64,000 nt of DNA from an uncultured Candidatus Saccharibacteria bacterium (GTDB lineage: Bacteria; Patescibacteriota; Minisyncoccia; UBA6257; UBA9933): positions 65,238 to 129,237 of the forward strand of contig CAZXNT010000001.1 of the NCBI GenBank assembly GCA_964642155.1. Reading direction: 5' to 3'. Below, piece after piece: positions 7,479 to 60,628 of the stretch. Position 1 is the stretch's first letter. Each line of letters starts with the position of its first letter. A program made the translations under genes and the position numbers. The notes under the pieces are model-generated. The model saw nothing but the letters and a program-made list of their open reading frames with translations. It searched no databases and was not told where the DNA came from.

Positions 7479-8480
7479 TCAGCTATTAGATAAAGCGATG
7501 ATTCGCTCAACGCTCAAATTCTGCGGCCTCGCATTCGGCTCAACACCGATTAATTTTAATTTTTCAATAATTTCTTCTTTGATTTTTGTCTTATTTATAA
7601 TTTGTGGTTCATTTTTATTACATTGTGCCTGCGATAGCAGATCTAATGTAATATTATTTTTATTTACTTTATCTCCCGCTATCCTATCGGATAGCGTGCT
7701 ATCCGATAGGATAGCTGTATTTTTGCCCGCAATTTCTGACATTAAATTATTTACAATCGTCTTCCTCGGCTGTTTAAAAAGAATTTTGATAAATTTATAA
7801 TATTTCTCATTATTACATTTCAACCGCGATAGCAGTTGAAATGTAACCGGCGTTAATTTAATAATCGCGCTATCCACTTTCGGCGCCGGTTTAAAATCAT
7901 TACGCGACACATAACCGATAATTTTCGGCTCAGCCCAAATCTGAACGCTAGCTGCCAATAAATTAATTTGCGGCGACTTGGCGCAAACGCGCTCCGCCAC
8001 TTCTTTTTGAATTAATAAAACAATTAATTCCGGCTTGCCTGCCCCGCTGTGCCCCGTAGTGAGTTTTGCTCTACTACTGGTGTAAGAAGCTTGCTTTTCT
8101 TCAGAGTACTCCAACCCGCCCAAAATCCTGAATAAATAACCAGTTATGTAATAGGGGATATTACCAACGATTTTATAATTCTTAATTCTGAATTCTGAAT
8201 TCTGAATTAAACGCGGAAGCACTTTCAATGCGTCACCTTCAATAATTTCTATATTTTTATCTCCCTTAAATTTTTCTTTAAAATCTTCGGCTAATTTCTT
8301 ATCTTTCTCAATCGCAATAATTCTACATTCTGAATTCTGCATTCTTAATTCTTTAGTAAGTTCCCCATGCCCGGGCCCAATTTCAATCACAACATCGCCG
8401 TCTTTCAATTCCAACGCTTCAACAATTTTCCGCAATTTCTCCTTATTTTTCAAAAAATACTGTCCAAGATAATTTCCCAT
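7479..8480 (-). CDS. ksgA: 16S rRNA (adenine1518/1519-N6)-dimethyltransferase KsgA/RsmA, carrying several in-frame repeat insertions
   Basis: Conserved motifs GQYFL, VVIEIGPGHGELT and GNIPYYIT. At 333 aa it is longer than typical KsgA. The extra segments correspond exactly to DNA repeats (two 34-bp palindromes, two GAATTCT tracts, one ATCCTATCGGATAGC palindrome). Confidence 0.85.
   Translation of the reverse strand: MGNYLGQYFLKNKEKLRKIVEALELKDGDVVIEIGPGHGELTKELRMQNSECRIIAIEKDKKLAEDFKEKFKGDKNIEIIEGDALKVLPRLIQNSEFRIKNYKIVGNIPYYITGYLFRILGGLEYSEEKQASYTSSRAKLTTGHSGAGKPELIVLLIQKEVAERVCAKSPQINLLAASVQIWAEPKIIGYVSRNDFKPAPKVDSAIIKLTPVTFQLLSRLKCNNEKYYKFIKILFKQPRKTIVNNLMSEIAGKNTAILSDSTLSDRIAGDKVNKNNITLDLLSQAQCNKNEPQIINKTKIKEEIIEKLKLIGVEPNARPQNLSVERIIALSNS
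7813..7846. repeat. 34-bp palindromic repeat TTACATTTCAAC-CGCGATAGCAG-TTGAAATGTAA. Family copies also at 7618-7651, 8515-8548, 9206-9239, 16057-16090 and 44096-44129.
   Basis: Read directly. Conserved core CTGCGATAGCAG flanked by TTACATT/AATGTAA arms. Three copies lie in-frame inside ksgA and the Mur ligase gene, three are intergenic. Confidence 0.85.
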
Positions 8481-8581
8481 TAATATCTATCATATCTATA
8501 AATATTTCATCAAATTACATTTCAACCGCGATAGCAGTTGAAATGTAATTTAAATTTATAATTTATATTATATAATTTGAT

Positions 8582-9193
8582 TTAATTAAATTCAGAAAAA
8601 ATTTTTTCGTCATCTATTTCGCCAACAGTTATAATTCTAATATGATTTTTTAATTTTTTATTAATAATTTCTTTATATAATTCTTTTGATAACGGCCATT
8701 TGCCGATAAAAACGCTTTTTTGAAACGGCCGATATCCCAACCCAAATAATTTGAATCGCAACCATTCTCTTTCTTTTTTTATTTTTTCCGGAATATCAAA
8801 CATTACAATTCTCCATTTTCCATCCCATTCTTTTTTTTTATTATTTTGTTGAATTTTTTTAAAATATTTTAATCCCAATAAAGTCAATTTATATTGTTCA
8901 TCATTTTTTTCAATTAATCCTTTTTGTTGTAAACGATATAAAATAACTTTTGCGTTATTCTTTTTTAAATTTTTAAGAAATTCTTTAATCTCAATATAAT
9001 CGGAAATAAAATCTCTACTATTCCTCATCCCAAAATCAAAAGCTCCGCCCACTCCCATTCTATTACTCATTAATATTCCTTCTCCTGTTTTAATAATTCC
9101 TTGCCCAATTCCAAAAATAACTGCCAAACTTGCCGCTCCTAAACTATATGGTAAATCTTTAAATTGTTCTTTAATTCTTTTTCCTCCTTTCAT
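8582..9193 (-). CDS. PaaX-like winged-helix regulator (Cas2/VapD-fold C-terminal domain)
   Basis: C-terminal motif WDGKWRIVMFDIPEKIKKEREWLRFKLFGLGYRPFQKSVFIGKWP resembles the PaaX signature. N-terminal wHTH ILYRLQQKGLIEK. Bracketed on both sides by copies of the 34-bp palindrome. Confidence 0.4.
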   Translation of the reverse strand: MKGGKRIKEQFKDLPYSLGAASLAVIFGIGQGIIKTGEGILMSNRMGVGGAFDFGMRNSRDFISDYIEIKEFLKNLKKNNAKVILYRLQQKGLIEKNDEQYKLTLLGLKYFKKIQQNNKKKEWDGKWRIVMFDIPEKIKKEREWLRFKLFGLGYRPFQKSVFIGKWPLSKELYKEIINKKLKNHIRIITVGEIDDEKIFSEFN

Positions 9194-9248
9194 CTTTCTA
9201 TTTTATTACATTTCAACCGCGATAGCAATTGAAATGTAACCAAGTAAA

Positions 9249-11120
9249 TCAATACTCAATATAACGCTCTTCGTCGTCCAGAAAATCGCTTAATGTTTCA
9301 AATTTATCGCGATTATTACTTGTAAACTCCACTGTTTCCGGAGCGATTTCATAAAGAAAACGCGAGGGGAAATTATAGAAATTTAAAAATAATTCTTTTT
9401 TGGCGCGTGTCATCGCCACATACATCAAACGGCGCTCTTCTTCAATTTCTTCATCATTATGATATGACATTTGGTGCGGCAACAGTCCTTCATTACAACC
9501 AACGATAAAAACCGCGTCAAATTCAAGCCCTTTGGCCAAATGAATCGTCATTAAATTTATAATATTTTGAGATTTATCTACTAATAGGCGAGATTGAGAA
9601 TCTAAAATTTGAGATTTTTTTATGGCATCACTTGATTGAAAAAGCGAGATTTTTTCAAGAAAATCTTGCAAATTATTGAATTCCGAAGCATAATAAATAA
9701 GTTCATTAATGTTTTCCTCGCGTTCGCGAAAATTATCGTAATTCTTTTTTAATTGGTTTAAATATCCTGTGATTTCCAAAATAAAGCTAATTAACTCAAC
9801 TGGCGGAAGTTTTCCGGTCATTTTCGGAATTTTATCTTGAATTTCCAAAAATGGTTTTTTCAAAAAATTGGTTTTTATTCTCTCAAAACTGACCGTATCG
9901 TTCGGATTAAACGCCCAACGAAGAACCGCCACAATGTCTTTAATTTCTTTGCGTTCATAAAATTTCACGCCGCCGAAAATCTTATAAGCGATGTCGTTTT
10001 CAATAAACGCGCTTTCAATGGCGCGCGACTGCGCGTTAGTGCGATAAAGTATGGCGATAGATTTATTAGAAATTGCCTCCCTTCGGGAGGTCTCCCGCAG
10101 GGAGAGAAATTGGAAATTGGAAATTTTTTCCGCTATCCACTCCGCTTCCCCGTCTTCATCATAATGTTCAATCGCTTTTACCAAATTGCCATCGTCATTT
10201 TCCGTCCAAAGATTTTTATGCTTTTGAAATTTATTTTTGGCTATCAAAGAAGAGGCAGCCTTGATGATGTTGCCGGTTGAACGATAATTTTGTTCTAAAA
10301 AAACGGTTTTTGTTTTCGGCCAATCTTTTTCAAAATTCAAAAAAATTTTAAAATCCGACCCCCTAAATTTATAAATTGACTGTTGGTCGTCTCCGACAAC
10401 GCTTAAATTTTTATGTCCACTAGCCAATAATTTTACAAAAACATATTGCGCCGTATTTGTATCCTGAAATTCGTCAACAAGAATATAACGGAATTTTTTC
10501 TGATATTTTTCAAGAATATCCGGATGATTTTTAAAAATTTTTACCGGCTCCGTGATTAAATCGTCAAAATCAAAAGCATTATTTCTCCGCAGGGTCGTTT
10601 CATATTCCTTAAAAAGAAATTTGACAGTATCATCTTCACTCTCGGGATCGGATAATTCACTTTTAATCCGTGAAAATTCTTTTCGTAAAAATAACGGGTT
10701 AACCTCCTTCTTTTTTTCGTATTCCGAAAAATTAAGATTTTTAACAATTGTTTTTATGAGCCGGAGTGAGTCATCGCCGTCAAAAATGGAAAAATTCGGC
10801 GTTCGGCCGACAAATTTAACTTCGTTTTTTAAAATTCGCGCCCCGAGAGAATGGAAAGTGCCGATGAACGGCTGAACTTTATTTTTTATTCTTAATTCAT
10901 TATTCATTATTCTATTTTTCATTTCTTCCGCCGCCTTATTGGTAAAAGTGATGGCCACAACGCTCTCTGGATCAACTCCGGAAGCCAAAATAGCCGCCAA
11001 ACGGCTGGTTAAAGCCCTGGTTTTCCCGCTTCCGGCTCCGGCAACTATCAAAATCGTCCCCTCTAAGTTTTCCACAGCCTCCTGTTGCTTTTTGTTAAGG
11101 CTTTGATATAATGGGTTCAT
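9249..11120 (-). CDS. uvrD: ATP-dependent DNA helicase UvrD/PcrA family
   Basis: Q-motif and Walker A LNKKQQEAVENLEGTILIVAGAGSGKTRALT. UvrD blocks FTNKAAEEM and YRSTGNII. The likely start is MNPLYQSL at 11120 rather than the ORF-track 11225. Contains an in-frame hairpin element at about 10069-10127. Confidence 0.85.
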   Translation of the reverse strand: MNPLYQSLNKKQQEAVENLEGTILIVAGAGSGKTRALTSRLAAILASGVDPESVVAITFTNKAAEEMKNRIMNNELRIKNKVQPFIGTFHSLGARILKNEVKFVGRTPNFSIFDGDDSLRLIKTIVKNLNFSEYEKKKEVNPLFLRKEFSRIKSELSDPESEDDTVKFLFKEYETTLRRNNAFDFDDLITEPVKIFKNHPDILEKYQKKFRYILVDEFQDTNTAQYVFVKLLASGHKNLSVVGDDQQSIYKFRGSDFKIFLNFEKDWPKTKTVFLEQNYRSTGNIIKAASSLIAKNKFQKHKNLWTENDDGNLVKAIEHYDEDGEAEWIAEKISNFQFLSLRETSRREAISNKSIAILYRTNAQSRAIESAFIENDIAYKIFGGVKFYERKEIKDIVAVLRWAFNPNDTVSFERIKTNFLKKPFLEIQDKIPKMTGKLPPVELISFILEITGYLNQLKKNYDNFREREENINELIYYASEFNNLQDFLEKISLFQSSDAIKKSQILDSQSRLLVDKSQNIINLMTIHLAKGLEFDAVFIVGCNEGLLPHQMSYHNDEEIEEERRLMYVAMTRAKKELFLNFYNFPSRFLYEIAPETVEFTSNNRDKFETLSDFLDDEERYIEY

Positions 11121-16972: not shown

Positions 16973-17629
16973 TTATATCGCCGCTAATTCTTTATAAACC
17001 TCTTGTGGATTGCCGCTTTCCCAAATATACGAACCGACCGCTAAAATATCAACTTCGGCTTCTTGGCATAATTTCGCGGTTTCCAAATTTATGCCGCCGT
17101 CAACTTCTATTATAACATCGGAAAATTTTTTCTTCAAAAATTTTATCTTATCCAAAACCTGCGGCTGAAATTTCTGACCGGACAATCCGGGATTAACAGC
17201 GAGTATTTGCACAAAATTCCTGCTTCTATTGATAGAAGCAGATAAAAAGGGAATTAAATTTTCAACCGATGTATCGGGATTTATCGCCAACCCGATTTCA
17301 ACGCCACTTAAAACTTTTAAACTTTGAAACTCTAAAACTTTAACTGCTTCCAAATGAACAATTATTCTTCTCGCCCCAGCCTTAATCCAATCGCCAATAA
17401 CCACTAATGGATTTTCAACCATTGAATGAACTTCGAGATTAATTTTCAATTTCCAATTTTCAATTTTCAATTTCTCTAAATCTTTTAGTTGATTCCAAGT
17501 TTTATGCGCAGTAAATTTGCCATCCGCGATATCAATCTGAACCCACTCCGCGCCAAATTCTACGGCTTTTTTTAATTTTTCCGCAACGCAGGCAAAATCG
17601 CCGCAATTTATCGTCGGAATAATTTTCAT
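16973..17629 (-). CDS. rpe: ribulose-phosphate 3-epimerase
   Basis: MKIIPTINCGDFA...VQIDIADGKF and the barrel motifs. Contains an in-frame (CAATTTT)n tract. Confidence 0.8.
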   Translation of the reverse strand: MKIIPTINCGDFACVAEKLKKAVEFGAEWVQIDIADGKFTAHKTWNQLKDLEKLKIENWKLKINLEVHSMVENPLVVIGDWIKAGARRIIVHLEAVKVLEFQSLKVLSGVEIGLAINPDTSVENLIPFLSASINRSRNFVQILAVNPGLSGQKFQPQVLDKIKFLKKKFSDVIIEVDGGINLETAKLCQEAEVDILAVGSYIWESGNPQEVYKELAAI

Positions 17630-17681: not shown

Positions 17682-18311
17682 CTAGTGGAAATTTCTAAAT
17701 TTATTTTTCATTATTATTTTGACATTTTTCATGTCAAAATAATCGGTTTCTTTAAAAAAATCATAATTCATAACGGAAAAAGGGGAGCCGTGATATCCGT
17801 CATAATCTATCGCTCCGAAAAGATGTCCGATTTCATGAGCTATAATCCGCTTTTCAAAAAAAGCGTCATCGCTTACTCCCACTAACGCATAATTTCCCAA
17901 ATATTCAGCCACACCCATCCACCAAAGATAATTTGTCTTTTGATCAGTAAAAGCCACAACAATGTCTATTTCTGGCATTATCTGGAATTTCCTTTTTACT
18001 TCATTAAGCATTGCCCTTTTATCATCACTATCCGACTCCGAACTCCATTCTTCAAAATCTTTCAAAATAAATTTAATTCTAAATTGATTTTCATAAATAA
18101 CCGAGACTTCATTAAATAAATCAACTATTCTTTCTTCCGAATTTTTATTTTTTTGCTTATATTTGTCATCAATAACAACTTTAACAATAATAATTCTAAT
18201 ATATTCATTGCCTATTCCCAAATCTTTGTAAGTAAAAATTTTTTCCGCGACGCAACCGAACATAAAAATAACAAGGGTTAAAATGACTCCCAGTCTTTTC
18301 AAAAATTTCAT
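17682..18311 (-). CDS. lipoprotein zinc metalloprotease (HEXXHXXGXXD, snapalysin-type motif)
   Basis: Lipobox FMFGC. Zinc-binding motif HEIGHLFGAID. Confidence 0.55.
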   Translation of the reverse strand: MKFLKRLGVILTLVIFMFGCVAEKIFTYKDLGIGNEYIRIIIVKVVIDDKYKQKNKNSEERIVDLFNEVSVIYENQFRIKFILKDFEEWSSESDSDDKRAMLNEVKRKFQIMPEIDIVVAFTDQKTNYLWWMGVAEYLGNYALVGVSDDAFFEKRIIAHEIGHLFGAIDYDGYHGSPFSVMNYDFFKETDYFDMKNVKIIMKNKFRNFH

Positions 18312-18353
18312 TTTCTGCCTCCTTATTTAAAAATTAAAGAACGTTTATTTTGT

Positions 18354-19561
18354 CTAAGATTTAACACAATAAACAGGATCGTCGCAATTCACTCTATAAA
18401 TAATTCCATCTTCATCATTTTCGAATAAGAGATTATTTTTATCTTCTAAAATAGCGCCTAAAATATAACTTTGACCGTCATCGCTGATACTATATGAATA
18501 AAATCGAATTGTTTTATCTTTATCTTTAATTAAAATGTCTTTTAAAAAATGCAATGAATTAGCTATGACGAGTGATTTCCCGTCAAATTTCAAATAGTCG
18601 CTTTTTGAAGCACTTGGATAATATTTTTTTGCAAGGTAATAATCGTTTAAATAAATCTGAATTTTGGAAAAATCAGACATCACCTGTTGTGCGGGATGCG
18701 CTTTTTGTTTAATTTTATTAAATCCAATACCAACTACTGACGCAAACAACACAAACAATATTATTAATAACGCTATAATCGCTCCAAATGTCGCGCAAAA
18801 AACAAAAAATCTCTTTTTAGTTTTAATCGGTTGATTAACTAACTCCGGCTTAAGCGAAATTAATGAGCGATATAAAATAAAGGAGTAAGCCACGGCAAAT
18901 GGCAATAATAAGAATGTGTATAAAATCTCATCTACTAATACTAATAAAGTATTATCTATAATATTTTTGTTAAAAATATCAAACGGGGAAATAATCACAA
19001 AACTAATACCAGTTATTATTAATGAACAAATTAATATTCTCCAAAAAATCTTCCACCAACAACCAGCCACATAATCTTTGCTTCTTAGAAGCGCTTGTAG
19101 ACCATATAAATTTTGGTCAATTAAAATATAGGCGGCAAAAATGAACCAGACGCCAAAAATGAAAATTGGAATAATCCCCATTACTAATCCGCCTAAACCA
19201 ATAAAAAAGCCAAGAACAACAAGCCATAAATAAGATTTGAATTTTGAAAGAGCTGATTTATAGGCGGCAATTACACCTAAGGATTCATCACAAAAAGCGC
19301 AAATTAAAGCCAACGGAGTAAATAAAAACAAAATAATAAACCAGCTAATCAGAATTATAAAACCTATTATTACTAAAAATATGTTGCTTTCAAAAACATA
19401 GGTGATTTGCAATAGTACCGAAAAAACAAATGGTAGTAAGCTAATAAAAATTAGTGTCTTAAAGCGATTCTTATATATTAACCAAGAAGACCCAAAAAGT
19501 TGACGGATAGAAATTAAAGATTTATTTGTGTTATTTAATTTTTGAGCTTTGAATTCGTCCA
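18354..19561 (-). CDS. polytopic membrane protein with C-terminal extracytoplasmic domain
   Basis: Multiple TM helices. The likely start is MDEFKAQKL at about 19561. The ORF-track extension to 19631 runs into the duplicated gap 3' fragment. Confidence 0.45.
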
Positions 19562-19583
19562 TTTTTAATTTAATTATATTGTT

Positions 19584-19667
19584 TCCGCCGCTTTCAAAAC
19601 GTGCTTTTTCAGCATTGCCACATATCCCCATTCGTTATCGTACCAGGAAAGAATTTTCACCAAATTC
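19584..19667. repeat. 84-bp direct repeat, identical to 20182-20265 (duplicated 3' end of gap)
   Basis: Identical strings tccgccgctttcaaaacgtgctttttcagcattgccacatatccccattcgttatcgtaccaggaaagaattttcaccaaatt at both positions. The DUF4258/DUF2283 pair lies between them. Confidence 0.9.
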
Positions 19668-20171: not shown

Positions 20172-21176
20172 TTACAAATTCTCCGCCGCTTTCAAAACGT
20201 GCTTTTTCAGCATTGCCACATATCCCCATTCGTTATCGTACCAGGAAAGAATTTTCACCAAATTGCCGTCGATTACTTTGGTAAATTTTAAATCAACGAT
20301 CGCTCCGTACGATTCAGAAATAATATCCGAAGAAACAATCTGGTCTTCAACGGTTTTTAAAATTCCCTGCCATTTTTGAGATCCTGTGGCTTTTTTCAAA
20401 ATATCATTAATTTCTTCAACCGAAGTTTTTCTTTTGGAAATAAAAGTGATGTCCGCGATGGAACCGGTAATCATAGGCACGCGCAAAGCAATGCCGTCAA
20501 ATTTTCCTTCCAAGTCTTTAATGATGCGATTGGTAGCAATGGCCGCGCCGGTAGTTGAAGGAATAATATTTTGCGAAGCGGCCCGGCCGCGCCGAAAATC
20601 GTTGCCCTTCACCGGACTGTCAACGGTTGTTTGAGTATTAGTCATTGCGTGAATAGTGTTTAAAACTGCTTTTTCAATTCCCGGATTTTCATTTAAAATC
20701 GCCATAACCGAAGCAATGCCGTTAGTGGTGCAGGAAGCGTTGGAAGAAATTTTAACGGATTTCAATTCATCGTCATTTATGCCGATTAAAATCGTCTTGC
20801 CCAAATCGCCGTCTGCGTCTTTTGCCGGCGCGGTCAAAACAACTCTTTTGGCTCCGGCGTCCAAATGCGCCTTGGCTTTTTCATAAGATTCAAAAACTCC
20901 CGTTGATTCAACGACAATATCCACGCCCAAATCTTTCCACGGTAATTTTGTCGGGTCTTTTTCCTGTAAAAATTTTATATTGTCAATCGGAGTTTCAAAA
21001 CGCCCGTAAACCGAATCGTACTTAAATAAATAACGCAGATTTTCAACGTCGCCCAAATCATTTATCGCGACAATTTCAATCCGCTGGCTAACGGATGGGT
21101 CGCTTAATATCTGCCTAAGGAATAATCGCCCAATCCTTCCAAAACCGTTTATCGCTATTTTAATTTTTTTATCCAT
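20172..21176 (-). CDS. gap: type I glyceraldehyde-3-phosphate dehydrogenase
   Basis: KIAINGFGRIGRLFLRQ and SNASCTTNGIASV active-site motifs. Confidence 0.9.
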   Translation of the reverse strand: MDKKIKIAINGFGRIGRLFLRQILSDPSVSQRIEIVAINDLGDVENLRYLFKYDSVYGRFETPIDNIKFLQEKDPTKLPWKDLGVDIVVESTGVFESYEKAKAHLDAGAKRVVLTAPAKDADGDLGKTILIGINDDELKSVKISSNASCTTNGIASVMAILNENPGIEKAVLNTIHAMTNTQTTVDSPVKGNDFRRGRAASQNIIPSTTGAAIATNRIIKDLEGKFDGIALRVPMITGSIADITFISKRKTSVEEINDILKKATGSQKWQGILKTVEDQIVSSDIISESYGAIVDLKFTKVIDGNLVKILSWYDNEWGYVAMLKKHVLKAAENL

Positions 21177-27832: not shown

Positions 27833-28366
27833 TTATATTTCTATTATTTTCCAAATATTATTAGGATAAAGACCTATTCTAATATAAATTGGCTCGTCAA
27901 TAAAAAATTCTTTTCTACCAGGAATATCATCTGATGAAAAATATCCATTTGTAGATTTTTTAAGTAAACTAAGATATTTATCTATAAATTCTTTTGTCAC
28001 TTTATTTAATTTTTCCAATTCTTTTTCCTGATATTTCTCTATAAAATATTTACTCGCCAATTCGTAATTTCCTGTTTCAACGGCGCTTATGTACATTTGC
28101 AAAGTTTCCTGCGGAATTCTACCGCCATAAGTGTCCGCCATGGCTTTTTGATAATCTTCTTGTTTAATTCTTTCCAATCTTCCAGCTAATTCTTCAACCG
28201 CTTTTTCTCCCTGCCATTGCCTAAAAAAATACCAACACCAAGAACTGGCGATATACAAAACAAAAACACCGGCGATTATCGTGAAGAATATCAATGTGAA
28301 CTTCCAAAATTTGCCTTTCGGCTTATTAATTTCGTTTATTTGATTGTTTTGATTTTGATTTTCCAT
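27833..28366 (-). CDS. small membrane-anchored protein, paralog of 26733..27266
   Basis: Same architecture. Its start codon abuts the terminal inverted repeat of MITE copy 1. Confidence 0.5.
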   Translation of the reverse strand: MENQNQNNQINEINKPKGKFWKFTLIFFTIIAGVFVLYIASSWCWYFFRQWQGEKAVEELAGRLERIKQEDYQKAMADTYGGRIPQETLQMYISAVETGNYELASKYFIEKYQEKELEKLNKVTKEFIDKYLSLLKKSTNGYFSSDDIPGRKEFFIDEPIYIRIGLYPNNIWKIIEI

Positions 28367-28513
28367 CCCTCACCCTTCAAAGATTTTCCAGTACATAAAG
28401 CTTTTTATGTACTGGATTATATTGAAGTTTAATTTTATTTTATATCTCATTCATTTTACTTATCATTCCCCTTTACCACTTTCTTTATTTCTTATCTTTG
28501 AAGGGTGAGGGAT
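28365..28513. mobile_element. MITE-like element copy 1 (20-bp terminal inverted repeats ATCCCTCACCCTTCAAAGAT / ATCTTTGAAGGGTGAGGGAT)
   Basis: Termini are identical to the copies at about 50081-50223 and 55438-55584. The interior is AT-rich with a hairpin. Confidence 0.6.
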
Positions 28514-28649
28514 TTTCAAAATAAAAAGGACGTATTCCAAAAAACACGCCCCCTCACTCAGGCATAATTAAATTATAAATCGCCACATTTTTCCGTCAAC
28601 CACTCTCTCTGTGGATAACTTATTTATCTAATACATTAAACTCTAAATA

Positions 28650-29522
28650 CTACTTACAAAGACAGAGAAATGGATGAGCGCAGTCATATACATAAGTTGT
28701 ACCACATCCAACATTTAATACAGCATTACTCTCGCCAAAATATAATGTAGCTTCGCATGTTTTTCCAATTTGAGAACATTTAGTGGCGCAACTTACATCG
28801 CGACAAGTCCATTCTGAAAAAAGAGCTCCTCCGCCTGCTGTGGTTTGTGTCGTGTTATCTGGAAATTTGAAACCGCCAGCGGTACTGTGAATTGTGCCGG
28901 CAACTTCTAATTTGCTATTTGGTATAGTCGTACCGATGCCGACGTTGCCGTTTTCTAAAATTGTTAGGGTTTTAGTAGTCACAACACTGCTTACATATCT
29001 AGTAATATCAAAATCTCCAGAAGTGCCGCTTGATCCCATCTTCCAGCCGTGGATACCTCCAGCGCCGTTATTTTGCGCAAGAAAAATCTGATTCTTAGTG
29101 CCAAGAGAAGATTCTACAATTTCTAACTTATATGCAGGCGCCGTCGTCCCAATACCGACGTTGCCATTTTTTATGGTCAAAACATCTGAGTTATTATTAT
29201 TGATGATTAAGGCGGAATCGGTGCCGAGTTTGAATAAAGTGGAAGTGGCTGATTGTCTGGATAATTTAAGCACAGAATCGGAAGAAGTGGAGTAGATTTC
29301 CATTTTAGCGCCGGGATATAAGGTACCGATACCGATATTATTGCTGGAATCGGAATATAAGGTCTGGCCAGCTGGATTGGGAGGAATAGTAGTAGGGGCA
29401 TTCCAACTAAAAACTAATTTAATAATAATTGTGATTAAGAAAAGAGCGGCGAAAAATAAAGATGAATAAAAGAAGGGTTTTTGGTGATTTTTTTTGAAAA
29501 ATAAAATAACAGCCCGCGCCAA
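28650..29522 (-). CDS. secreted repeat protein with tail-fibre-like GNVGIGTT.P..KLEV repeats and a Cys-rich C-terminus
   Basis: Hydrophobic N-terminus. Three repeats NVGIGTTAPAYKLEI / NVGIGTTIPNSKLEV. The start is read as TTG directly after the (CT)n tract. Confidence 0.5.
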   Translation of the reverse strand: MARAVILFFKKNHQKPFFYSSLFFAALFLITIIIKLVFSWNAPTTIPPNPAGQTLYSDSSNNIGIGTLYPGAKMEIYSTSSDSVLKLSRQSATSTLFKLGTDSALIINNNNSDVLTIKNGNVGIGTTAPAYKLEIVESSLGTKNQIFLAQNNGAGGIHGWKMGSSGTSGDFDITRYVSSVVTTKTLTILENGNVGIGTTIPNSKLEVAGTIHSTAGGFKFPDNTTQTTAGGGALFSEWTCRDVSCATKCSQIGKTCEATLYFGESNAVLNVGCGTTYVYDCAHPFLCLCK

Positions 29523-29526: not shown

Positions 29527-29551
29527 CTCTCTCTCTCTCTCTCTCTCTCTC
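29527..29551. repeat. (CT)12 dinucleotide microsatellite immediately 5' of the start of 28650..29522
   Basis: Read directly from the sequence (ctctct...c, 25 nt). Confidence 0.9.
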
Positions 29552-31185: not shown

Positions 31186-33036
31186 TTAAAAACCAACTTC
31201 GCCGTTTTTTGAATCAAAACCGACATCACTTAATCCCTGAGTGGACACGCTCTTGGCGGAACCGGTTAACTGCAAATTAACAAATTCGTCAACGGCGCTT
31301 ATTAAAGAATCTCCGATTAATATCGGATACTTCCCGATTTGATTGGCATTTGGCAATAATTCTATTTGGAAAACAGCTTCAACCGGCTTATTAATAATGC
31401 CCTTGGTTGCCGCGATTCTATCAATAAGCCAACTCACTTCTTGCGTTCTTTCATTATAAACCGGGATAGTATTTATATTGCTTTTTGCTTCACCAATAAG
31501 CCTGACACCCGGACCAAGATACGCCCCAACACTCGCATTTTTAATATCAGTGGAATAATTCCTGACAATCCAATGAACAATAAAATTTATCGGATTATTA
31601 GCTTTCGGCGGAAGCGAACCTTTATTTAAAATTCCGGAAGCTAAAATTGAAAAATCGCGGAAATAAATTTTTGAATCAAGGGCAACGGCGCCGGCAACTT
31701 TTATTTCCCAATTTGCAAAACTAGTTGTTTTATCGGTCGCCACATAATACGGAACGGTCGGCGAAGAAATATCAGCCGCGACTTTCAAAATAAAATTTTT
31801 ATCGGACAATCTTTTAATAGGATAACTCGGCTTCACACTTATTTCAAATTCAACCGCGCCGCTTCCGCCGGGTTCAATTAAATGCAATTCTGCATTGCTT
31901 GCCGCATTCCACGTTAAAGTGTTATCGCGGGAATCAAAAGAGGCATTGGTTCTTAATTGGGAAAAATCAAACATTTCTCCGCTTAATTTCGTCTTAACCA
32001 CAACGTCTCCAAGTCCAACGTCGCTATTATTTGAATAAACAACTCTGAATTTTAAATTGCCACCCGGCAAAACATATTCCGAAGAAACGTCAAATTCAAT
32101 TTTTAAAAAAAGCGGCGACGGCGCGATATTCACCTTCGCGGATTTCTCGCTGATTTTAAAAACTTGATTTTCACCTGCCTGACCGGCGGGCAAGTAAGAA
32201 GCTTCAATGTTTGAATTGATTTCAAAAAACGTTTGATTAATGCCGGAAATTTTTCCAACAACGGCGATTTCGCCTTTCTGATTTTTATTTAAATTGCCAA
32301 TATCTAAAACATTGTCGCTAACCGCGGGGTTGGAACTTTTAACGATAAAATCTTTGGGAAAATTAAAATTCAGTTTAACGCTGGAAAAATCAAATTCGGA
32401 AATATTTGAATATTTGATTACCACTTCAAACTCTTCATTGTTTAAAACTTTTTCCGGAGCGACAAGGTCAAACTTGATGGCCGGTTCGCGGACGGAAACT
32501 TCCACGGTTTGTTTTTTTTCAAAAGTAGTTCCCAGAGCCGAGGTATAACTTACTGAAACATTGAATTTTTTAACTGACTCGCCGTCGCTAAAAATTAAAA
32601 TTTTTATTTTCTCGCTGAAACCGCTTTCTGGATTGATATCTCCGATTTCTTTTTCAAAATTTCTTTTTTCTTTGCTAATATTCAACGCCGCCACTCCTTC
32701 TGGCAATAAAACAGAAAGCCTAACGTTTTCCAAAACTTTTTTTGAACCATTGTTAAAATCCACCGCCAAATCAAACGGAACACCCATTAGAACATTGTCT
32801 TTGGCAGATGCGATAAGCGATATTTCGCGGCTGGCTGAGAAATAATTATAAAAATAAAAACTTGACACTGCCACTCCTATCGTCGCCAAAGCAACCAACA
32901 CCCAAAATATCCGATGGCTTATGAGGCTAATTTTTACGACGGGCGCGCCGGCTTTTTTGCCAAAATTTTGCGCTAAATCAAACTTTTGTTCCTTATTCCA
33001 ACTTGAACCGTAATTTTTATTATCTTCTTGGGCCAT
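31186..33036 (-). CDS. membrane-anchored protein with multiple beta-sandwich (CARDB/DUF11-like) domains, pilus-associated by position
   Basis: N-terminal TM (IFWVLVALATIGVAVSSF). Repeated V.V.Y.N beta-rich modules. Likely start MAQEDNK at about 33036. Confidence 0.45.
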   Translation of the reverse strand: MAQEDNKNYGSSWNKEQKFDLAQNFGKKAGAPVVKISLISHRIFWVLVALATIGVAVSSFYFYNYFSASREISLIASAKDNVLMGVPFDLAVDFNNGSKKVLENVRLSVLLPEGVAALNISKEKRNFEKEIGDINPESGFSEKIKILIFSDGESVKKFNVSVSYTSALGTTFEKKQTVEVSVREPAIKFDLVAPEKVLNNEEFEVVIKYSNISEFDFSSVKLNFNFPKDFIVKSSNPAVSDNVLDIGNLNKNQKGEIAVVGKISGINQTFFEINSNIEASYLPAGQAGENQVFKISEKSAKVNIAPSPLFLKIEFDVSSEYVLPGGNLKFRVVYSNNSDVGLGDVVVKTKLSGEMFDFSQLRTNASFDSRDNTLTWNAASNAELHLIEPGGSGAVEFEISVKPSYPIKRLSDKNFILKVAADISSPTVPYYVATDKTTSFANWEIKVAGAVALDSKIYFRDFSILASGILNKGSLPPKANNPINFIVHWIVRNYSTDIKNASVGAYLGPGVRLIGEAKSNINTIPVYNERTQEVSWLIDRIAATKGIINKPVEAVFQIELLPNANQIGKYPILIGDSLISAVDEFVNLQLTGSAKSVSTQGLSDVGFDSKNGEVGF

Positions 33037-33631: not shown

Positions 33632-33713
33632 GCTCCCGTGGCGGAACTGGAATACGCGCGGCGTTTAGAACGCCGTCCCGCAAGGGTTAGAGGTTCAAAT
33701 CCTCTCGGGAGCA
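33632..33713 (+). tRNA. tRNA-Leu (anticodon TAG), long variable arm
   Basis: Acceptor stem GCTCCCG/CGGGAGC. Anticodon stem CGGCG/CGCCG with loop TTTAGAA. T-loop GGTTCAAATCC. Confidence 0.75.
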
Positions 33714-33715
33714 CA

Positions 33716-34051
33716 TTATTTCCCCCTGTCGCCGTATTTTTCAAAAATCGTCCAAAAACTGAAAATTTTTTCTCCTTCGTTATAAACTTTATGAAAATCG
33801 CCGGCGGGTATAAGAACAACATCCTCTGCTTTAACGGAAATTTTTTGTTCCGCCACTTCTATTAATCCTTCTCCATCAATAAAAATATGAACCTCATCAG
33901 CATCGCTATGAGAATGACCGGTTGTGGCTTTCCCCGGATAAAGTTCTGTTAAGGAAAGAGTTAAATGATTTAAACTGGACAAGTCATAAACCTTATAAAT
34001 TTCATTGTCTCGTATGAGTTTGGCTGATTGTTTATATTCTTTGATATTCAT
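33716..34051 (-). CDS. cupin-domain protein
   Basis: Cupin motifs GHSHSDADEVHIFIDGEG and VVLIPAGDFHKVYN. Confidence 0.65.
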   Translation of the reverse strand: MNIKEYKQSAKLIRDNEIYKVYDLSSLNHLTLSLTELYPGKATTGHSHSDADEVHIFIDGEGLIEVAEQKISVKAEDVVLIPAGDFHKVYNEGEKIFSFWTIFEKYGDRGK

Positions 34052-34060
34052 ATTATTATT

Positions 34061-34132
34061 TGCCCTCGCGAGGAATCGAACCTCAATTTTAGGTTTAGGA
34101 AACCCATGTCCTATCCGTTGAACGACGAGGGC
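34061..34132 (-). tRNA. tRNA-Arg (anticodon CCT)
   Basis: Reverse complement folds with acceptor stem GCCCTCG/CGAGGGC, anticodon loop TTCCTAA and T-loop TTCGATT. Confidence 0.7.
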
Positions 34133-34229
34133 TTATTGTCAAATTATGATTGCTTGAATATAATAATTAAAACACAAATAATAATAATTTCAAAGGTCGT
34201 TTTAATTTTTTAATTTATAATTTAAAACA

Positions 34230-34535: not shown

Positions 34536-34547
34536 AATGCCGTTTAT

Positions 34548-41884: not shown

Positions 41885-43146
41885 TTTTTAAAAATCTTCA
41901 AAAAACCGACTCTGAAATTTACAAACTTATCGTTGCTGAAGATAAACGGCAGAAAGAAACAATAAACCTGATTGCTTCGGAAAATTTTGTTTCCGAAAGT
42001 GTTCTTGAAGCGTTGGGTTCGGTTTTCACTAATAAATACAGCGAAGGATATCCTCATGCCAGATATTACGGAGGCAATGAATTTTGCGACAAATTGGAAG
42101 AATTATGCCAAAAAAGAGCACTTAAACTTTTTAAACTTTCGGCGCGCGAATGGAGCGTTAATGTTCAACCGTATTCCGGTTCTCCGGCAAATCTAGCCGT
42201 CTATTTGGCGCTTGTGCCAATTGACGAATCCGCCTTCGCGCAAGGCTACGGCGGACGAGGAAAAATAATGGGAATGCAACTTGATATGGGCGGGCATCTG
42301 ACGCACGGACACAAAGCGAGCGCCACGGGGAAATTATGGCAACAAATTCCTTACGGCGTTGATGAAAAAACCGAGCAATTAAATTATGATGAAATTTTAC
42401 AAATTGCCAAAAAAGAAAAACCGAAATTGATTGTTTGCGGCTATACCGCTTATTCGCGAATTATTGATTTTAAAAAATTCCGAAAAATCGCCGATGCTGT
42501 TAATGCTATTTTAATGATTGATATGTCTCATTTTGCCGGATTGGTTGCCGGAGGCGTTTATCCTTCTCCTTTTAAATACGCTGACGTTATCACGACAACA
42601 ACGCACAAAACTTTGCGAGGACCCCGCGCCGCGCTCATATTTACGAATAAAAATAAAAAATTACATTACACCAGCGATAGCATGTCTAATGTAATAAATA
42701 AAGCTGTTTTCCCGGGATTGCAAGGCGGGCCACATATGAACGCCGTTGCCGCCGTTGCCGTAGCCTTACAAGAAGCCGCCAAACCGGCTTTTAAAAAATA
42801 TAGCCAACAAATAATAAAAAACGCTAAAACTTTTGCTTTGGAACTGCAAAAACTCGGCTGGCGAATTATTGCTAACGGCACGGATACGCATTTATTTTTA
42901 GTTGATACATGGTCGCGCGGAATTAGTGGAAAAACCGCCGAAACCGCGCTTGAAAAAGCCGGTATAATTGTTAATAAAAATACGATTCCGTTTGACAAAC
43001 GAAGCCCAATTGACCCATCCGGAATAAGAATCGGAACAGCGGCAATCACCAGTCAGGGACTAAAAGAAAAAGATATGAAAAAAATCGCGAAAAAAATAGA
43101 TAAAATTCTAACGGGGTTGACAAAAAAATATAGTAAGTTAAAATAA
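41881..43146 (+). CDS. glyA: serine hydroxymethyltransferase
   Basis: LIASENFVSESVLEALGS and TTTTHKTLRGPR (PLP-binding Lys). Confidence 0.9.
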   Translation: MIFKNLQKTDSEIYKLIVAEDKRQKETINLIASENFVSESVLEALGSVFTNKYSEGYPHARYYGGNEFCDKLEELCQKRALKLFKLSAREWSVNVQPYSGSPANLAVYLALVPIDESAFAQGYGGRGKIMGMQLDMGGHLTHGHKASATGKLWQQIPYGVDEKTEQLNYDEILQIAKKEKPKLIVCGYTAYSRIIDFKKFRKIADAVNAILMIDMSHFAGLVAGGVYPSPFKYADVITTTTHKTLRGPRAALIFTNKNKKLHYTSDSMSNVINKAVFPGLQGGPHMNAVAAVAVALQEAAKPAFKKYSQQIIKNAKTFALELQKLGWRIIANGTDTHLFLVDTWSRGISGKTAETALEKAGIIVNKNTIPFDKRSPIDPSGIRIGTAAITSQGLKEKDMKKIAKKIDKILTGLTKKYSKLK

Positions 43147-43404: not shown

Positions 43405-44826
43405 TTATATTATTACATTGTGGGCTTTTTTATTTTCCAAAATTTCCTCCACGATTTTTTTTTCGTCCCACGGAATTTTTTTATTGCCCGCAACGCACAT
43501 TGACGACTCCCCTCCCTTCCCCGTTAAAATAACAACATCTCCTTTTTGCGCCAAAAACAGCGCCTTTTTAATCGCTTCTCTCCTATCTATAATTTCATAA
43601 ATTTTGGAAATTGGAAATTGTCTGGCTTCGCCAGATCTCGCGAAGCGAGAGAAATTGGAAATTCCAGATTTTATTTCCGATAAAATCTGGCTGGGTTTTT
43701 CGTCATATGGGTCTTCATTCGTCAAAATAACTTCATCGCAATATCGCGTTGCTATTTCGCCCATTTTCGGCCTTTTCCATTTATCCCGTCCTCCGCCCTG
43801 CGCCCCCAATAAACATATCAACTTTGAATTCTGAATTCTGAATTCTGAATTCTGAATTGTTTGATATACTGCTTCCAAACTCACCGGTTCATGGGCGTAA
43901 TCAACAATCACGGTAAAATCACTTACCTTGATAATCTCCATTCTGCCTGCCGGCGATTTTGCCTGCGCCAACGCTTCTTTTATTTTTTCAATCGGGATAT
44001 TTAGCGACAAAGTAACCGCAATCGCCGCCACGGCATTATAAACATTAAATTCCCCAACTAATAGTATTCCAATAATTAATGGTATTTCAATTTTATTACA
44101 TTGCATCTGCGATAGCAGATGTAATGTAACTTCGAATTTTGTTTTATCTGAATATAATTTAATATTTTCTACTTCTAAAATTTTATTTACTTTTGACTTT
44201 TGATTTGAACTTTTGACTTTTATTCCGTATCCGTATTTATTTTTAATTTCCGGTTTTAAAAAATATTCAACGTTTTCATCGTCTAAGTTATAAATCCCAA
44301 CACCATTTTTCTTTCGTGCCACTCTTTCAAATAATTTTATTTTTGCGTTCCGATAATTTTCAAAACCGCCGTGCCGTTCAATATGTTCAGGCGATAAATT
44401 TGTAAAAACCGCGATATCATAATCAATAAAACGATGTCTGTATTGCAAAATCCCCTCTGAAGAAGTTTCTACCACCGCGTATTCGCATTTTTCCGCAACC
44501 ATTTGCCTCAGCAATTTTTGCAGCTGAAACCTGCCGAGCATTGTCTGCTTTGATTCGTTTTTCCATTCCCGCTCGCCTATCCGAAAATCCACCGTGGTTG
44601 CCATTCCGACTTTATGGCCGCTGAAATTCAAAATTTGAGCGATTAAATTGCAAGTGGTGGTTTTTCCTTTGGTTCCGGTAACACCGATGACTTTCATTTT
44701 GTGAGACGGAAAACCATAAATCAAGGCTGAAAAAAATGCCAGAGAAAAATGATAAATCGGCTGGCCGAGCCGATATAAAAATTTCGGAATAATATGTTTT
44801 TCAAAAAATCTTAAAATTTTCTCCAT
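43405..44826 (-). CDS. murE: Mur ligase family protein (MurE-like), with in-frame repeat insertions
   Basis: VIGVTGTKGKTTT P-loop, NLSPEHIERHGGFENYRNAK and a C-terminal GGGRDKWKRP Mur-ligase motif. Contains a 34-bp palindrome, a (GAATTCT)4 tract and a double-hairpin element. Confidence 0.7.
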   Translation of the reverse strand: MEKILRFFEKHIIPKFLYRLGQPIYHFSLAFFSALIYGFPSHKMKVIGVTGTKGKTTTCNLIAQILNFSGHKVGMATTVDFRIGEREWKNESKQTMLGRFQLQKLLRQMVAEKCEYAVVETSSEGILQYRHRFIDYDIAVFTNLSPEHIERHGGFENYRNAKIKLFERVARKKNGVGIYNLDDENVEYFLKPEIKNKYGYGIKVKSSNQKSKVNKILEVENIKLYSDKTKFEVTLHLLSQMQCNKIEIPLIIGILLVGEFNVYNAVAAIAVTLSLNIPIEKIKEALAQAKSPAGRMEIIKVSDFTVIVDYAHEPVSLEAVYQTIQNSEFRIQNSKLICLLGAQGGGRDKWKRPKMGEIATRYCDEVILTNEDPYDEKPSQILSEIKSGISNFSRFARSGEARQFPISKIYEIIDRREAIKKALFLAQKGDVVILTGKGGESSMCVAGNKKIPWDEKKIVEEILENKKAHNVII

Positions 44827-44827: not shown

Positions 44828-46075
<1,248 letters not shown>

Positions 46076-59248: not shown

Positions 59249-60628
59249 TTGGGGATTTTGGCATTTTTGCCTTTTGATTATTTCTGGCCATTTGGTTTTT
59301 TTTATCTTGTTCCGCTTTTTATTTTTTTAATTAAAGAAAAAAGTTTATGGAAATTATTGGCCGGCGGTCTTGTTTTTCGAGTAATTTTTAGTCTCGGAAC
59401 GGTTTATTTTACCTTAGAACCAATTCTCTGGCTACTTTCAATCCCGCTTTTTTTAGGCCTTCCAATTTCTGTTTTTTTTCTTAAAAAATTCTTAAACCGT
59501 TTTAATAATTCCTTAATTCTTAATTCTTACTTCTTAATTCTATCTTTGCCGTTCCTCTGGGCTTTTTTTGACCATTTTCAAGCCCGTTTTTCGCTCTTCC
59601 CGACTTATATAATGACTGCCGGCAATTCATTGGGCTCATCGCCATTTCTCGGACTGGCTTCAATTAGCGGATTAATTTCACTTACTTTTTTTGCGGCTTT
59701 AATAAATACTTTAATCGCTATTTTGATTTTAAAAATAAAATCACAAAATACCAAAATCATAATTCTTAATTCATTATTAGTAATTTTTATAATAATAAGC
59801 GCTTGGCAAATTTCCCAACTTCAACTTCAAAAAAATTCTGAAACCTATGAAAATCTTGAAAATTCTTTTAAAATCGCCGCTGTTTCCGTTAATGAAAATT
59901 TCAACTATTCCGATTTAGAAAAAATCAAAAATAAAATAATAAACAACGAAATTGATTTCTTAATCCTGCCTGAAGATATTTTTAATAACTCGCCCCAAGA
60001 ATTAGATCTAAAATTTTGGCGCGACTTTGCTCAAAAAATAAACGCTGGTCTTTTAGCAACCGGCGACCGACAAGAAAACAACAAACGCTATGATTCAAGC
60101 ATTTTAATGGATAAAAACGGTAAAATTGCCGATATTTACGACAAAAACCGCCTGACTTTTATAGGCGAATACTGGCCTTTCGGCAAATGGATTCCCTTCT
60201 ATCTTAACTGGTTAAAAAAAACTCAGCCGGAAATCAAAAATTACGCGGTTTTTAATTTTAAAAATGCTTATTCTTCCGGCAATCAAAAACTGCTAACCGT
60301 AAAATCAAAAAATGGAGATCTTAAATTTGCTTCTCTGATTTGTTTAGAAATTCATTATCTCCGCGATTTGAAAAATTATAAAAAAATGGGAATACAACTC
60401 TTTATTAATCCCACCAGCAACCGTTGGCTGGATTTAGGTTTGTACCATTTTTTATATCTGACTAATAATTTAAGAAAGATTGAATCTGTTTGGCTAAAAG
60501 CGCCGATTGTTTCAAGCGGAGTTAAAGATTATGCTGGAATTATTGAGCCGACAGGCATTAGCCGCTTGATTAATTTTGAAAATCAAAATAAAAATTACGG
60601 ATTATTTCTGGGAGAAGTTAGGTATTAA
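59249..60628 (+). CDS. lnt: apolipoprotein N-acyltransferase-like protein (multi-TM N-terminus plus CN-hydrolase domain)
   Basis: Six or seven N-terminal TM helices. Nitrilase-fold E/K/C triad candidates (LPEDIF, DKNRLTFIGEYWP, ASLICLEI). Confidence 0.5.
   Translation: MGILAFLPFDYFWPFGFFYLVPLFIFLIKEKSLWKLLAGGLVFRVIFSLGTVYFTLEPILWLLSIPLFLGLPISVFFLKKFLNRFNNSLILNSYFLILSLPFLWAFFDHFQARFSLFPTYIMTAGNSLGSSPFLGLASISGLISLTFFAALINTLIAILILKIKSQNTKIIILNSLLVIFIIISAWQISQLQLQKNSETYENLENSFKIAAVSVNENFNYSDLEKIKNKIINNEIDFLILPEDIFNNSPQELDLKFWRDFAQKINAGLLATGDRQENNKRYDSSILMDKNGKIADIYDKNRLTFIGEYWPFGKWIPFYLNWLKKTQPEIKNYAVFNFKNAYSSGNQKLLTVKSKNGDLKFASLICLEIHYLRDLKNYKKMGIQLFINPTSNRWLDLGLYHFLYLTNNLRKIESVWLKAPIVSSGVKDYAGIIEPTGISRLINFENQNKNYGLFLGEVRY

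Follow-up and report, generated by a model that had tools for sequence, protein, structure and literature searches.

How can a tandem repeat whose unit is not a multiple of three settle inside essential genes and leave their reading frames intact? The question is raised by ksgA and murE, two genes in a 64,000-nt stretch of DNA (contig CAZXNT010000001.1, hereafter the window) from an uncultured bacterium of the Candidate Phyla Radiation (CPR, Patescibacteria). An earlier note, made from the sequence of the window, had pointed to GAATTCT units in tandem within both genes, and its coordinates, repeat unit and gene assignments are borne out by Tandem Repeats Finder (TRF), by the open reading frames (ORFs) and by matches in the PDB. 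We find that these tracts are genuine heptanucleotide simple-sequence repeats (SSRs) lying in frame within ksgA and murE, and that tandem arrays with a 7-nt period, comprising about 3-5 units each and about 30 unit types, predominate among the repeats of the lineage.

In-frame heptamer tracts in ksgA and murE

Repeats were called by direct reading of the sequence together with TRF. The two host genes and their three GAATTCT tracts are as follows.

7479..8480, minus strand: ksgA/rsmA, 16S rRNA dimethyladenosine transferase, 333 aa (ORF; B. subtilis KsgA structures in the PDB, E=1.8e-25)
8177-8208, minus strand: ksgA site 2, heptamer tract (TRF period 7, 4.6 copies, 96% matches)
8319-8352, minus strand: ksgA site 1, degenerate heptamer tract (TRF period 7, 4.9 copies, 77% matches)
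43405..44826, minus strand: murE-type Mur ligase, 473 aa (ORF; MurE and MurE-like structures in the PDB, E=3.7e-57)
43825-43858, minus strand: murE site A, perfect heptamer tract (TRF period 7, 4.9 copies, 100% matches)

All three tracts consist of a 7-nt unit repeated head to tail in at least about three copies, as in heptanucleotide long SSRs and the short tandemly repeated repetitive (STRR) sequences; within ksgA site 2 the perfect run covers 8184-8208 and 3.6 units. The two-unit probe GAATTCTGAATTCT matches the window 16 times when up to two mismatches are allowed, against 1.48 matches expected, and none of 100 shuffled sequences gave 16 or more. Homologues of the two proteins carry the expected domains (PF00398 for KsgA; PF08245 and PF02875 for MurE) and, where named, belong to "Candidatus Wolfebacteria" or Patescibacteria, which marks the host as a CPR bacterium resembling Wolfebacteria. 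The G+C content of the window is about 30-41%, and each protein is the single member of its 90%-identity cluster.

On the coding (minus) strand the unit reads AGAATTC, and the tracts encode the cyclic peptide RIQNSEF. Because three units make 21 nt, or seven codons, the same cyclic peptide results from every frame; the reverse orientation, GAATTCT, has TGA in all frames. At ksgA site 2 the sense sequence (AGAATTC)x4.6 gives LIQNSEFRIKN immediately ahead of the beta-strand KIVGNIPY, at ksgA site 1 the units AGAATKY give ELRMQNSECRI past the S-adenosylmethionine-binding motif I, and at murE site A (AGAATTC)x4.9 gives TIQNSEFRIQNS immediately ahead of the strand KLICLLG. The host ORFs run uninterrupted across all three tracts, which lie well inside the proteins (residues 43-54, 90-103 and 322-334). 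That any 7-nt gain or loss would shift the frame, as had been remarked at the outset, follows arithmetically.

The GAATTC-type single strands fold, with energies of -6.2 and -6.5 kcal/mol (z = -4.5 and -2.7). Only units of this GAATTC type fold significantly, and the idea that the tracts form hairpins in general is therefore rejected. No inverted-repeat remnants were seen in the sequences of the GAATTCT tracts.

Alignment with proteins of known structure shows how little length the tracts add. Relative to B. subtilis KsgA the change is +2 aa at site 1 and 0 aa net at site 2; relative to a plant MurE-like protein it is +4 aa at murE site A. By these alignments the tracts are not simple insertions: they take the place of native loop sequence and alter the length by 0 to +4 aa. 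The window KsgA exceeds most orthologues by about 40-70 aa because of small inserts.

The tracts occupy permissive strand/turn or loop positions. In an AlphaFold model of the window KsgA (predicted template modelling score, pTM, 0.74), site 1 forms a helix end, turn and strand with a predicted local distance difference test (pLDDT) score >90, and site 2 forms a loop of pLDDT about 67 ahead of strand 102-107; pLDDT falls to <50 in the larger palindromic inserts (residues 127-146 and 254-292). A beta-strand follows directly after each tract (RIIAIE, KIVGN or KLICLLG). The repeat peptide could therefore be read as a benign strand-turn module, in which F-R-I would supply a three-residue strand and Q-N-S-E a four-residue turn.

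Turnover and recurrence of the tracts

Four metagenome loci (L002/L003 and L124/L125) represent one close relative, here called R, that is syntenic with the window. Neighbouring proteins of R and the window are 82-97% identical and their DNA 84-95%, against 77% for KsgA, whose differences pile up at the repeat sites. KsgA is only 66-77% identical where its neighbours exceed 90% because of the turnover of repeat DNA.

At ksgA site 2, R (L002) is exactly 21 nt, or three units, shorter than the window and has ACTACAA-type units; this is the sole clean length difference between relatives at a GAATTCT site. At ksgA site 1 an AAAGTTG-type sequence stands in R in place of the AGAATTC type. At murE site A, the (AGAATTC)4.9 of the window corresponds to (AAAGTTN)4 in R (L124), which is shorter by 6 nt; the final unit, AAGTTGA, is common to both. 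The 13-mer TTAAAAGTTGAAA, unique and not in the window, occurs in R at both ksgA site 1 and murE site A, the same two sites that are both of the AGAATTC type in the window. That two loci differ in concert between genomes indicates exchange between loci or a common constraint. Unit type is unchanged between the window and R at three other tracts (in rpe, in an M23 peptidase gene and at uvrD site 1). A strictly genome-specific flavour of unit was considered and is ruled out: AGAATTA, CAATTTC and GAAAATT units are common to the window and R, in uvrD and rpe.

A gap-based survey of about 87 pairs of related loci for changes in tract length yielded one further case only, because unit replacement rather than the clean gain or loss of units dominates. 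Tracts can be nearly identical at greater distance: the orthologue in L001 is 74.4% identical over ksgA, yet 35 of 36 bases match within the site 2 tract, an identity that ranks in the top 1.8% of 36-nt windows and equals that of the catalytic motif. No match to the murE tract was found when JGI metagenomes were searched with its anchored flanks and a gap of variable length.

We compared 120 KsgA and 120 MurE orthologues from Wolfebacteria-like genomes (aligned KsgA lengths 250-334 aa) and scored peptide stretches, 8 aa or longer, for which a perfect heptamer repeat free of stops could be the coding sequence. Such stretches occur in 21 of the 120 KsgA and 30 of the 120 MurE sequences, with 0.0 expected from shuffled sequences. 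They represent 29 unit types, all A/T-rich, the most frequent being AAATCTC (10 stretches) and AGAATTC (6); the AGAATTC stretches are found at five different sites across the two proteins. Heptamer-type peptides recur at matching sites in many lineages. KsgA site 2 reads IQNSEFRIQN, IHNSELRIKN, IHNSSFIIQN or IIQDYRLQTTNYK, among others, and a second MurE site (site B) reads ISNFQFSIS, MNYELRIKN, QIPNSKFQIP or QIRNPKSEIR, among others. Among KsgA orthologues the tracts at one site grade from perfect to degenerate. All 240 orthologues are in frame, and tracts are retained at the same sites in proteins only 55-75% identical. Perfect heptamers were confirmed in the DNA of individual loci, such as (CAGAATT)4.6 in L001 and (GCAAATC)4.3 in L126.

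The same bias towards seven nucleotides is evident in the DNA of the lineage at large. In a 455-kb sample made up of the window and 67 metagenome loci, perfect tandem tracts number 41 for period 7, 12 for period 6, 6 for period 5, 3 for period 8 and 1 for period 9; period 11 falls within the 1-12 range and period 10 is absent. Most of the period-7 tracts (31 of 41) lie inside open frames of at least 150 aa. The longest perfect runs are mostly of 4.3-4.9 units, and none exceeds 5.

The repeat also occurs far outside the lineage. The exact 20-mer GAATTCTGAATTCTGAATTC is found in at least 120 stretches of species-representative genomes. Nostoc and other cyanobacteria account for many of the matches listed; further ones come from Bacteroidota, Phycisphaerales, Acidobacteriota and Clostridia, and a genome of Uhrbacteria (CPR) has one. 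Open frames of at least 300 aa hold 33 of the tracts listed, invariably in the RIQNSEF sense. Nine of the ten frames tested encode conserved enzymes: CobN, CarB, UvrA, IleRS, MetH, RecG (with two tracts), LeuRS, YceG and LpxB. In MetH of the isolate Xanthomarina gelatinilytica, IEIQNSEFRIQNYKF stands where E. coli has IEIYRDETRTHVINV, at essentially equal length; the CarB tract is part of a longer insert.

Further tracts, nested palindromes and neighbouring elements

Heptamers inside housekeeping genes had been called unusual, which they are in general; in this lineage they are common. Within the window, perfect period-7 tracts (at least 2 units + 3 nt) number 8, compared with 0.2 in shuffles, and the total comes to at least nine heptamer tracts in six genes, spread over many loci and of several unit types. 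Every GAATTCT-type tract in the window lies inside a gene. Confinement of the tracts to ksgA and the Mur ligase gene had been named in the earlier note as part of what would refute it; lnt holds a TAATTCT tract, and tracts of other heptamer units are present in uvrD, rpe, murE and an M23 peptidase gene. The additional tracts are:

10065..10127, minus strand: uvrD site 2, (CAATTTC)n tract encoding ISNFQFLSLRETSRREAISN, with heptamers at 10106-10125, split by a 30-nt double palindrome at 10076-10105 (family D15)
10877..10913, minus strand: uvrD site 1, AGAATAA/TGAATAA-type heptamer tract encoding RIMNNELRIKNK (TRF)
17441..17473, minus strand: rpe, (GAAAATT)x4.7 tract encoding LEKLKIENWKLKI (TRF; kept in L002)
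43604..43672, minus strand: murE site B, composite encoding ISNFSRFARSGEARQFPIS, in which (CAATTTC)n heptamers (43604-43620) flank two 15-nt perfect palindromes (43621-43650) (family D15)
44189..44221, minus strand: murE, degenerate CAAAAGT-type tract encoding KVKSSNQKSKV (TRF period 7, 4.9 copies, 77% matches)
46032..46060, minus strand: M23 peptidase gene, CTACTTT-type tract in the signal-peptide region (TRF; perfect x4.3 in L124/L140)
59506..59541, plus strand: lnt (LNT_N and CN_hydrolase in Pfam), TAATTCT x5 tract encoding NSLILNSYFLIL in a membrane segment (TRF, Pfam)

The murE region at 44189-44221 differs between the window and L124, and murE site B has heptamer peptides without palindromes in orthologues. 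At uvrD site 1, L002 has AGAATTA units. The lnt tract is in the stop-containing orientation, and a TAA-to-TAC change restores reading. All four NAATTCT-type tracts share plus-strand orientation in the window, that of the plus-strand gene lnt included; with lnt as the single informative case, this may hint at replication-strand-specific generation of tracts.

Heptamer tracts are preferred sites of small GC-rich palindromic inserts. The clearest example is uvrD site 2, where the 30-nt insert at 10076-10105 consists of two 15-nt perfect palindromes, TCTCCCTGCGGGAGA and CCTCCCGAAGGGAGG, and falls exactly at a unit boundary of the (CAATTTC)n tract; in R the tract is unbroken and the flanks are otherwise identical. 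Because the number of heptamer units equals that of the empty site in R, the insert carries no target duplication. The murE composite at 43604-43672 is of the same kind, with compensatory changes in its stems. An all-against-all comparison of related loci revealed a 21-nt palindromic insert, CCATGCCTACCGGTAGGCAGG, within the AGAATTA tract at uvrD site 1 of L191/L131, and a 36-nt double hairpin within a (GGAATTT)n tract that is present in L136 and absent from L132. About 3 of 9 GC-rich palindromic indels fall in heptamer tracts, which by our estimate make up about 0.5% of the sequence, and these three lack a target duplication. The lengths of these inserts (21, 30, 33 and 36 nt) are all multiples of 3.

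Other palindromes and hairpins stand in frame within the genes of the window:

7617..7651: TTACATT hairpin in ksgA, in frame, peptide LLSQAQCN, within a 48-nt insert that L002 is without
7678..7715: perfect 38-nt palindrome with an 18-bp stem in ksgA, encoding AILSDSTLSDRIAG, also in L002 and P0003/P0011
7812..7846: second TTACATT hairpin in ksgA, in frame, peptide TFQLLSRLKCN
8037..8108, minus strand: 69-72-nt GC-richer insert in ksgA, YSEEKQASYTSSRAKLTTGHSGAG, not in L002 or L001, pLDDT <50
42661..42695: TTACATT hairpin in glyA, in frame, peptide LHYTSDSMSNV
44095..44129: TTACATT hairpin in murE, in frame, peptide TLHLLSQMQCN

The window contains 12 perfect palindromes whose stems measure 10 bp or more, against 1.7 expected. 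The 34-nt hairpin family TTACATT-N6-GCKATMGC-N6-AATGTAA (fold z = -5.1) has seven copies in the window, four of them in frame (two in ksgA and one each in glyA and murE). In the metagenome loci 67 of its 77 copies lie outside long ORFs, a mostly intergenic distribution like that of repetitive extragenic palindromic (REP) sequences. Among the repeats considered here, this family alone has the short GC-centred hairpin, mostly extragenic location and multiple copies that characterize REP and REPIN elements. No gene for a REP-associated tyrosine transposase (RAYT, IS200/IS605-like) was noticed in the window, and no search was aimed at RAYT association. Rfam at gathering thresholds identifies five tRNAs only, with no match at tracts or hairpins.

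The glyA hairpin stands in for a longer native segment kept by L124 (HLLDDHGYDEIKEKQKKSISELI), and the shortened loop precedes the conserved VFPG motif. Mini-inserts of 21-36 nt that are GC-rich, imperfectly palindromic and in frame, such as CCTTGTCTACCGGCAGGCAGG and CTTGCCCGCCGGTCAGGCAGG, code for LVYRQAG and GKQASYGAG, among other peptides. They form a family located at 32174-32194, 42228-42260 and 8037-8108 of the window, in UvrD of L002, and in L191, L131, L136 and L145, and their presence varies between close relatives, across genes and across sites of one gene family.

Next to ksgA, a 203-aa ORF (8582-9193, minus strand) with a PaaX central/Cas2-like domain (PF20803, E=3e-17) lies between two near-identical TTACATT...AATGTAA hairpins (8515-8549 and 9205-9239). 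It is not in L002, where the gap between uvrD and ksgA is 28 nt, and with its flanks it looks like a hairpin-flanked gene cassette.

In the region of 17682-19631, near the rpe tract, rpe and gap are about 2.5 kb apart in the window; in L002 they are adjacent. The interval holds a M12/reprolysin-like metallopeptidase ORF and a 425-aa ORF without a Pfam match. An exact 83-nt direct repeat (19584-19666 and 20182-20264) copies the 3' end of the GAPDH gene, and the interval looks like an insertion with target duplication.

Several repeats elsewhere in the window are of other kinds. Three intergenic elements of about 150 nt (28363-28524, 50079-50234 and 55436-55595) share 22-nt terminal inverted repeats (CCATCCCTCACCCTTCAAAGAT ... 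ATCTTTGAAGGGTGAGGGAT) around AT-rich, non-conserved interiors, and the right arm is also found in L191; they resemble miniature inverted-repeat transposable elements, or else form one large stem that is conserved. Positions 8-44 and 38794-38830 make up an inverted repeat of 37 nt (TCCGTATCAGTCTGCGTTAAGTCTGTATTGGTCTGTG; 89% complementary), with one arm within secF, where the window is 21-27 nt longer than L124 and has an octamer-like GTCTGTAT/CAGACCAA periodicity. The five tRNA genes comprise a cluster of four (33632-35169) and one at 54816-54887; the cluster region, 33.6-35.2 kb, contains short ORFs and strong perfect hairpins, for example at 35056-35095 (18-bp stem). A perfect (CT)12.5 run at 29527-29551, (AG)n on the minus strand, is located 5 nt upstream of the TTG start of an ORF (28650..29522, minus strand) and is a better candidate than the heptamers for a tract that controls expression by slippage.

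Origin of the tracts and comparison with known repeats

How the tracts arise and persist can be approached from these patterns. We give about an even chance to a reading in which they are translated, non-adaptive repeats of the long-SSR/STRR class, maintained by misalignment and short-patch exchange, while selection passes the frame-preserving states; the mechanism is reconstructed from sequence comparison. The tracts would be self-perpetuating DNA without adaptive value. Strand misalignment would homogenize the units within a tract, and in the palindromic GAATTC unit a 21-nt hairpin of three units may aid slips that preserve the frame. Short-patch exchange among loci would swap unit types. 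Purifying selection would let through only changes of 21 nt or other multiples of three, same-length replacement and the stop-free orientation, at loop or strand-turn sites that may accept almost any hydrophilic peptide. The tracts could then serve as favoured landing sites for small GC-rich palindromes. The stop-orientation tract in lnt, with its TAA-to-TAC change, fits gene-blind generation followed by selection. The description of the tracts as slippage-prone is plausible, since the one clean difference is 21 nt and GAATTC strands fold.

Several observations weigh against this scheme. Ongoing slippage is deduced from a single 21-nt difference, and translation of the tracts is assumed from intact frames. 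Simple slippage predicts neither the same-length replacement of native sequence, nor the wholesale change of unit type between close relatives, nor an upper limit of about 4-5 units. A nascent tract would, moreover, shift the frame at its first duplications, of 7 and 14 nt. Finally, both the near-identity of tracts in distant orthologues and the identity of one unit across several phyla could mean selection on DNA or RNA, or active copying. Same-length replacement, the ceiling of about five units and cross-phylum identity of the unit leave room for templated copying or a function in cis.

Active mobility is an unlikely explanation. The 30-35-nt tracts and small palindromes would be mini-cassettes, akin to the small dispersed repeats (SDRs) of cyanobacteria, REPINs or Rickettsia palindromic elements; dedicated trans-acting machinery, or short DNA that is taken up and annealed, would copy them over loop-coding segments. 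The cassette-like way in which close relatives differ, the matching unit types of two loci in one genome and the presence of one unit at different sites in different lineages, and even across phyla, suit such copying. So do the 35 of 36 bases shared by distant orthologues, the narrow size range (longest perfect runs of 4.3-4.9 units) and the clean insertion of the nested palindromes. However, no candidate enzyme is tied to the tracts within the window, terminal signals and target duplications were not seen, the unit types number 29 where a few families would be expected, and a single site shows all grades between perfect and degenerate tracts. The pattern could equally result from ordinary ectopic gene conversion.

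A related and somewhat more doubtful possibility is that a self-propagating cassette of about 30-35 nt (about 4-5 heptamers, (AGAATTC)n being one type) spreads across phyla, overwrites loop-coding segments of essential genes at nearly constant length by an undescribed templated patch replacement and then seeds palindromes. Reiterative gap filling and retro- or oligonucleotide-templated repair are candidate processes. If true, CPR, cyanobacteria, Bacteroidota and Planctomycetota would share a novel type of mobile DNA that resides in coding regions.

We regard as improbable a function in cis, in which a nucleoid protein, a DNA-uptake receptor, a translational regulator or a similar factor would bind the tracts on DNA or mRNA, and the tracts would stand at positions that the protein can bear. 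Tract conservation between the window and L001 equals that of the catalytic motif, the array size of about 4-5 units recalls those proposed as regulator sites in Geobacter, Nostoc and Beggiatoaceae, and unit type may covary genome-wide. Against this, a close relative replaces or loses the unit and retains the gene, one site carries dozens of unit types among orthologues, the hosts are unrelated, the tracts are internal and away from the 5' end, and no Rfam family matches.

Phase variation, in which single 7-nt slips would reversibly frameshift ksgA and murE, is very improbable. Heptanucleotide SSRs do vary in phase elsewhere, as at the hmw promoters of Haemophilus, and the tracts here share with the contingency loci of Haemophilus and Neisseria an in-ORF unit that is not a multiple of three, along with slippage chemistry; they are also perfect and hairpin-prone. 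Contingency loci, however, sit in surface, lipopolysaccharide or restriction-modification genes, near the 5' end, as long polymorphic ON/OFF tracts, none of which is seen here. The hosts here are ksgA, murE, uvrD and rpe rather than dispensable, environment-facing genes; ksgA and murE are single-copy housekeeping genes, and murE is essential for peptidoglycan synthesis. The tracts are mid-gene, have at most 5 units, differ cleanly in length only by 21 nt and are in frame in every orthologue and locus read. The frameshift switch implied when the tracts were first noticed is not supported, given the single-copy hosts, the 240 of 240 orthologues in frame and the persistence of sites at 55-75% identity.

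The footprint of an insertion element, also suggested at that time, is scarcely credible, whether as target duplications or as end remnants of an insertion sequence or transposon. The duplication-like tandem appearance and the landing of small inserts in heptamer tracts speak for it. But there is no terminal inverted repeat, inverted-repeat remnant, target duplication, transposase or other element nearby, and the native loop has been replaced. The number of units around the nested insert is equal, hence there was no target duplication; four or five identical units would demand repeated cycles of insertion and excision, and a 7-nt footprint would break the frame. An assembly or sequencing artefact, to which repeats are prone, is practically negligible, since the same tracts, sites and frame appear in independent NCBI, ENA, JGI and Logan assemblies and in isolate genomes.

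If, as we propose, the tracts are translated repeats without adaptive value, then streamlined, essential CPR genes harbour repeat DNA that turns over rapidly, and repeat-derived segments should not be taken for functional insertions in annotation. Because the frame filter exposes only 21-nt steps or same-length replacement, the unexplained excess of heptanucleotides in bacteria becomes testable in such genes.

Among known repeats the closest counterparts are long SSRs and STRR sequences, of which the heptamers of cyanobacteria were reportedly described in 1990. Both they and the tracts here form short head-to-tail heptamer arrays that occur genome-wide, in many unit types, as the most over-represented class, and Nostoc genomes frequently contain (GAATTCT)n itself. 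The cases described so far lie mostly between genes and are depleted within them, whereas about three quarters of the tracts here are intragenic, in frame, in essential genes among others, and at homologous sites in orthologues. The predominantly intergenic location described for Nostoc, Xanthomonas and Beggiatoaceae is not found here. A regulatory role has been proposed for Nostoc heptamers near promoters. Heptanucleotides have been cited as the most abundant long SSR class in many prokaryotes, and a polymerase interaction favouring 7-nt slippage has been put forward (Mrazek 2007, as referred to in PMC4679880).

The TAACTGA heptamers of Beggiatoaceae, cyanobacteria and Bacteroidetes, in 2-6 copies (MacGregor 2015, PMC4679880), have stops in all three frames one way and encode cyclic LSVISYQ the other. 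Most of them immediately precede start codons, the rare copies within ORFs fall at the ends of proteins, and their patchy cross-phylum distribution suggests transfer (PMC4679880). Our tracts likewise form short heptamer arrays with one stop orientation, a cyclic heptapeptide in the other and patchy cross-phylum spread; they differ in being internal, beside conserved motifs and drawn from a large unit vocabulary.

A preference for about four units is shared with two further systems. Geobacter metallireducens has 49 four-unit GGACCGG heptamer elements within and between genes (PMC2700814), and the GGGNATC repeats of Xanthomonas and Nostoc, with four units as the preferred number, tend to stay out of coding regions (PMC4692102). 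These units are GC-rich, and GGGNATC forms G-quadruplexes, whereas ours are AT-rich and prone to hairpins in the GAATTC type only.

Rickettsia palindromic elements are said to be selfish DNA inserted in frame, at permissive surface positions, in conserved protein genes and translated with them. The tracts here are also dispersed in-frame repeats in conserved genes, absent from some orthologues and placed at permissive sites. Rickettsia palindromic elements are, however, palindromes of 100-150 bp, unlike the 30-35-nt tandem heptamers and 15-38-nt palindromes found here, which have no Rfam match. The SDRs of Nostoc are reportedly mobile-looking repeats of 21-27 nt whose presence varies between close strains, and they are reportedly associated with tandem heptamers and hairpins. 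In these respects the SDRs would resemble the palindromic inserts nested here, but they belong to another phylum, have other sequences and reportedly do not have occupancy of coding regions as their main feature.

A literature search found nothing on repeats of this kind in CPR/Patescibacteria. What is new here is that, unusually, heptamers of the SSR/STRR type live in frame in essential CPR genes and are coupled to nested palindromic mini-inserts. Together with the in-frame identical unit in other phyla, the heptamer tracts and their nested palindromes connect STRR sequences, TAACTGA repeats, Geobacter elements and SDRs, which may share a common mechanism.

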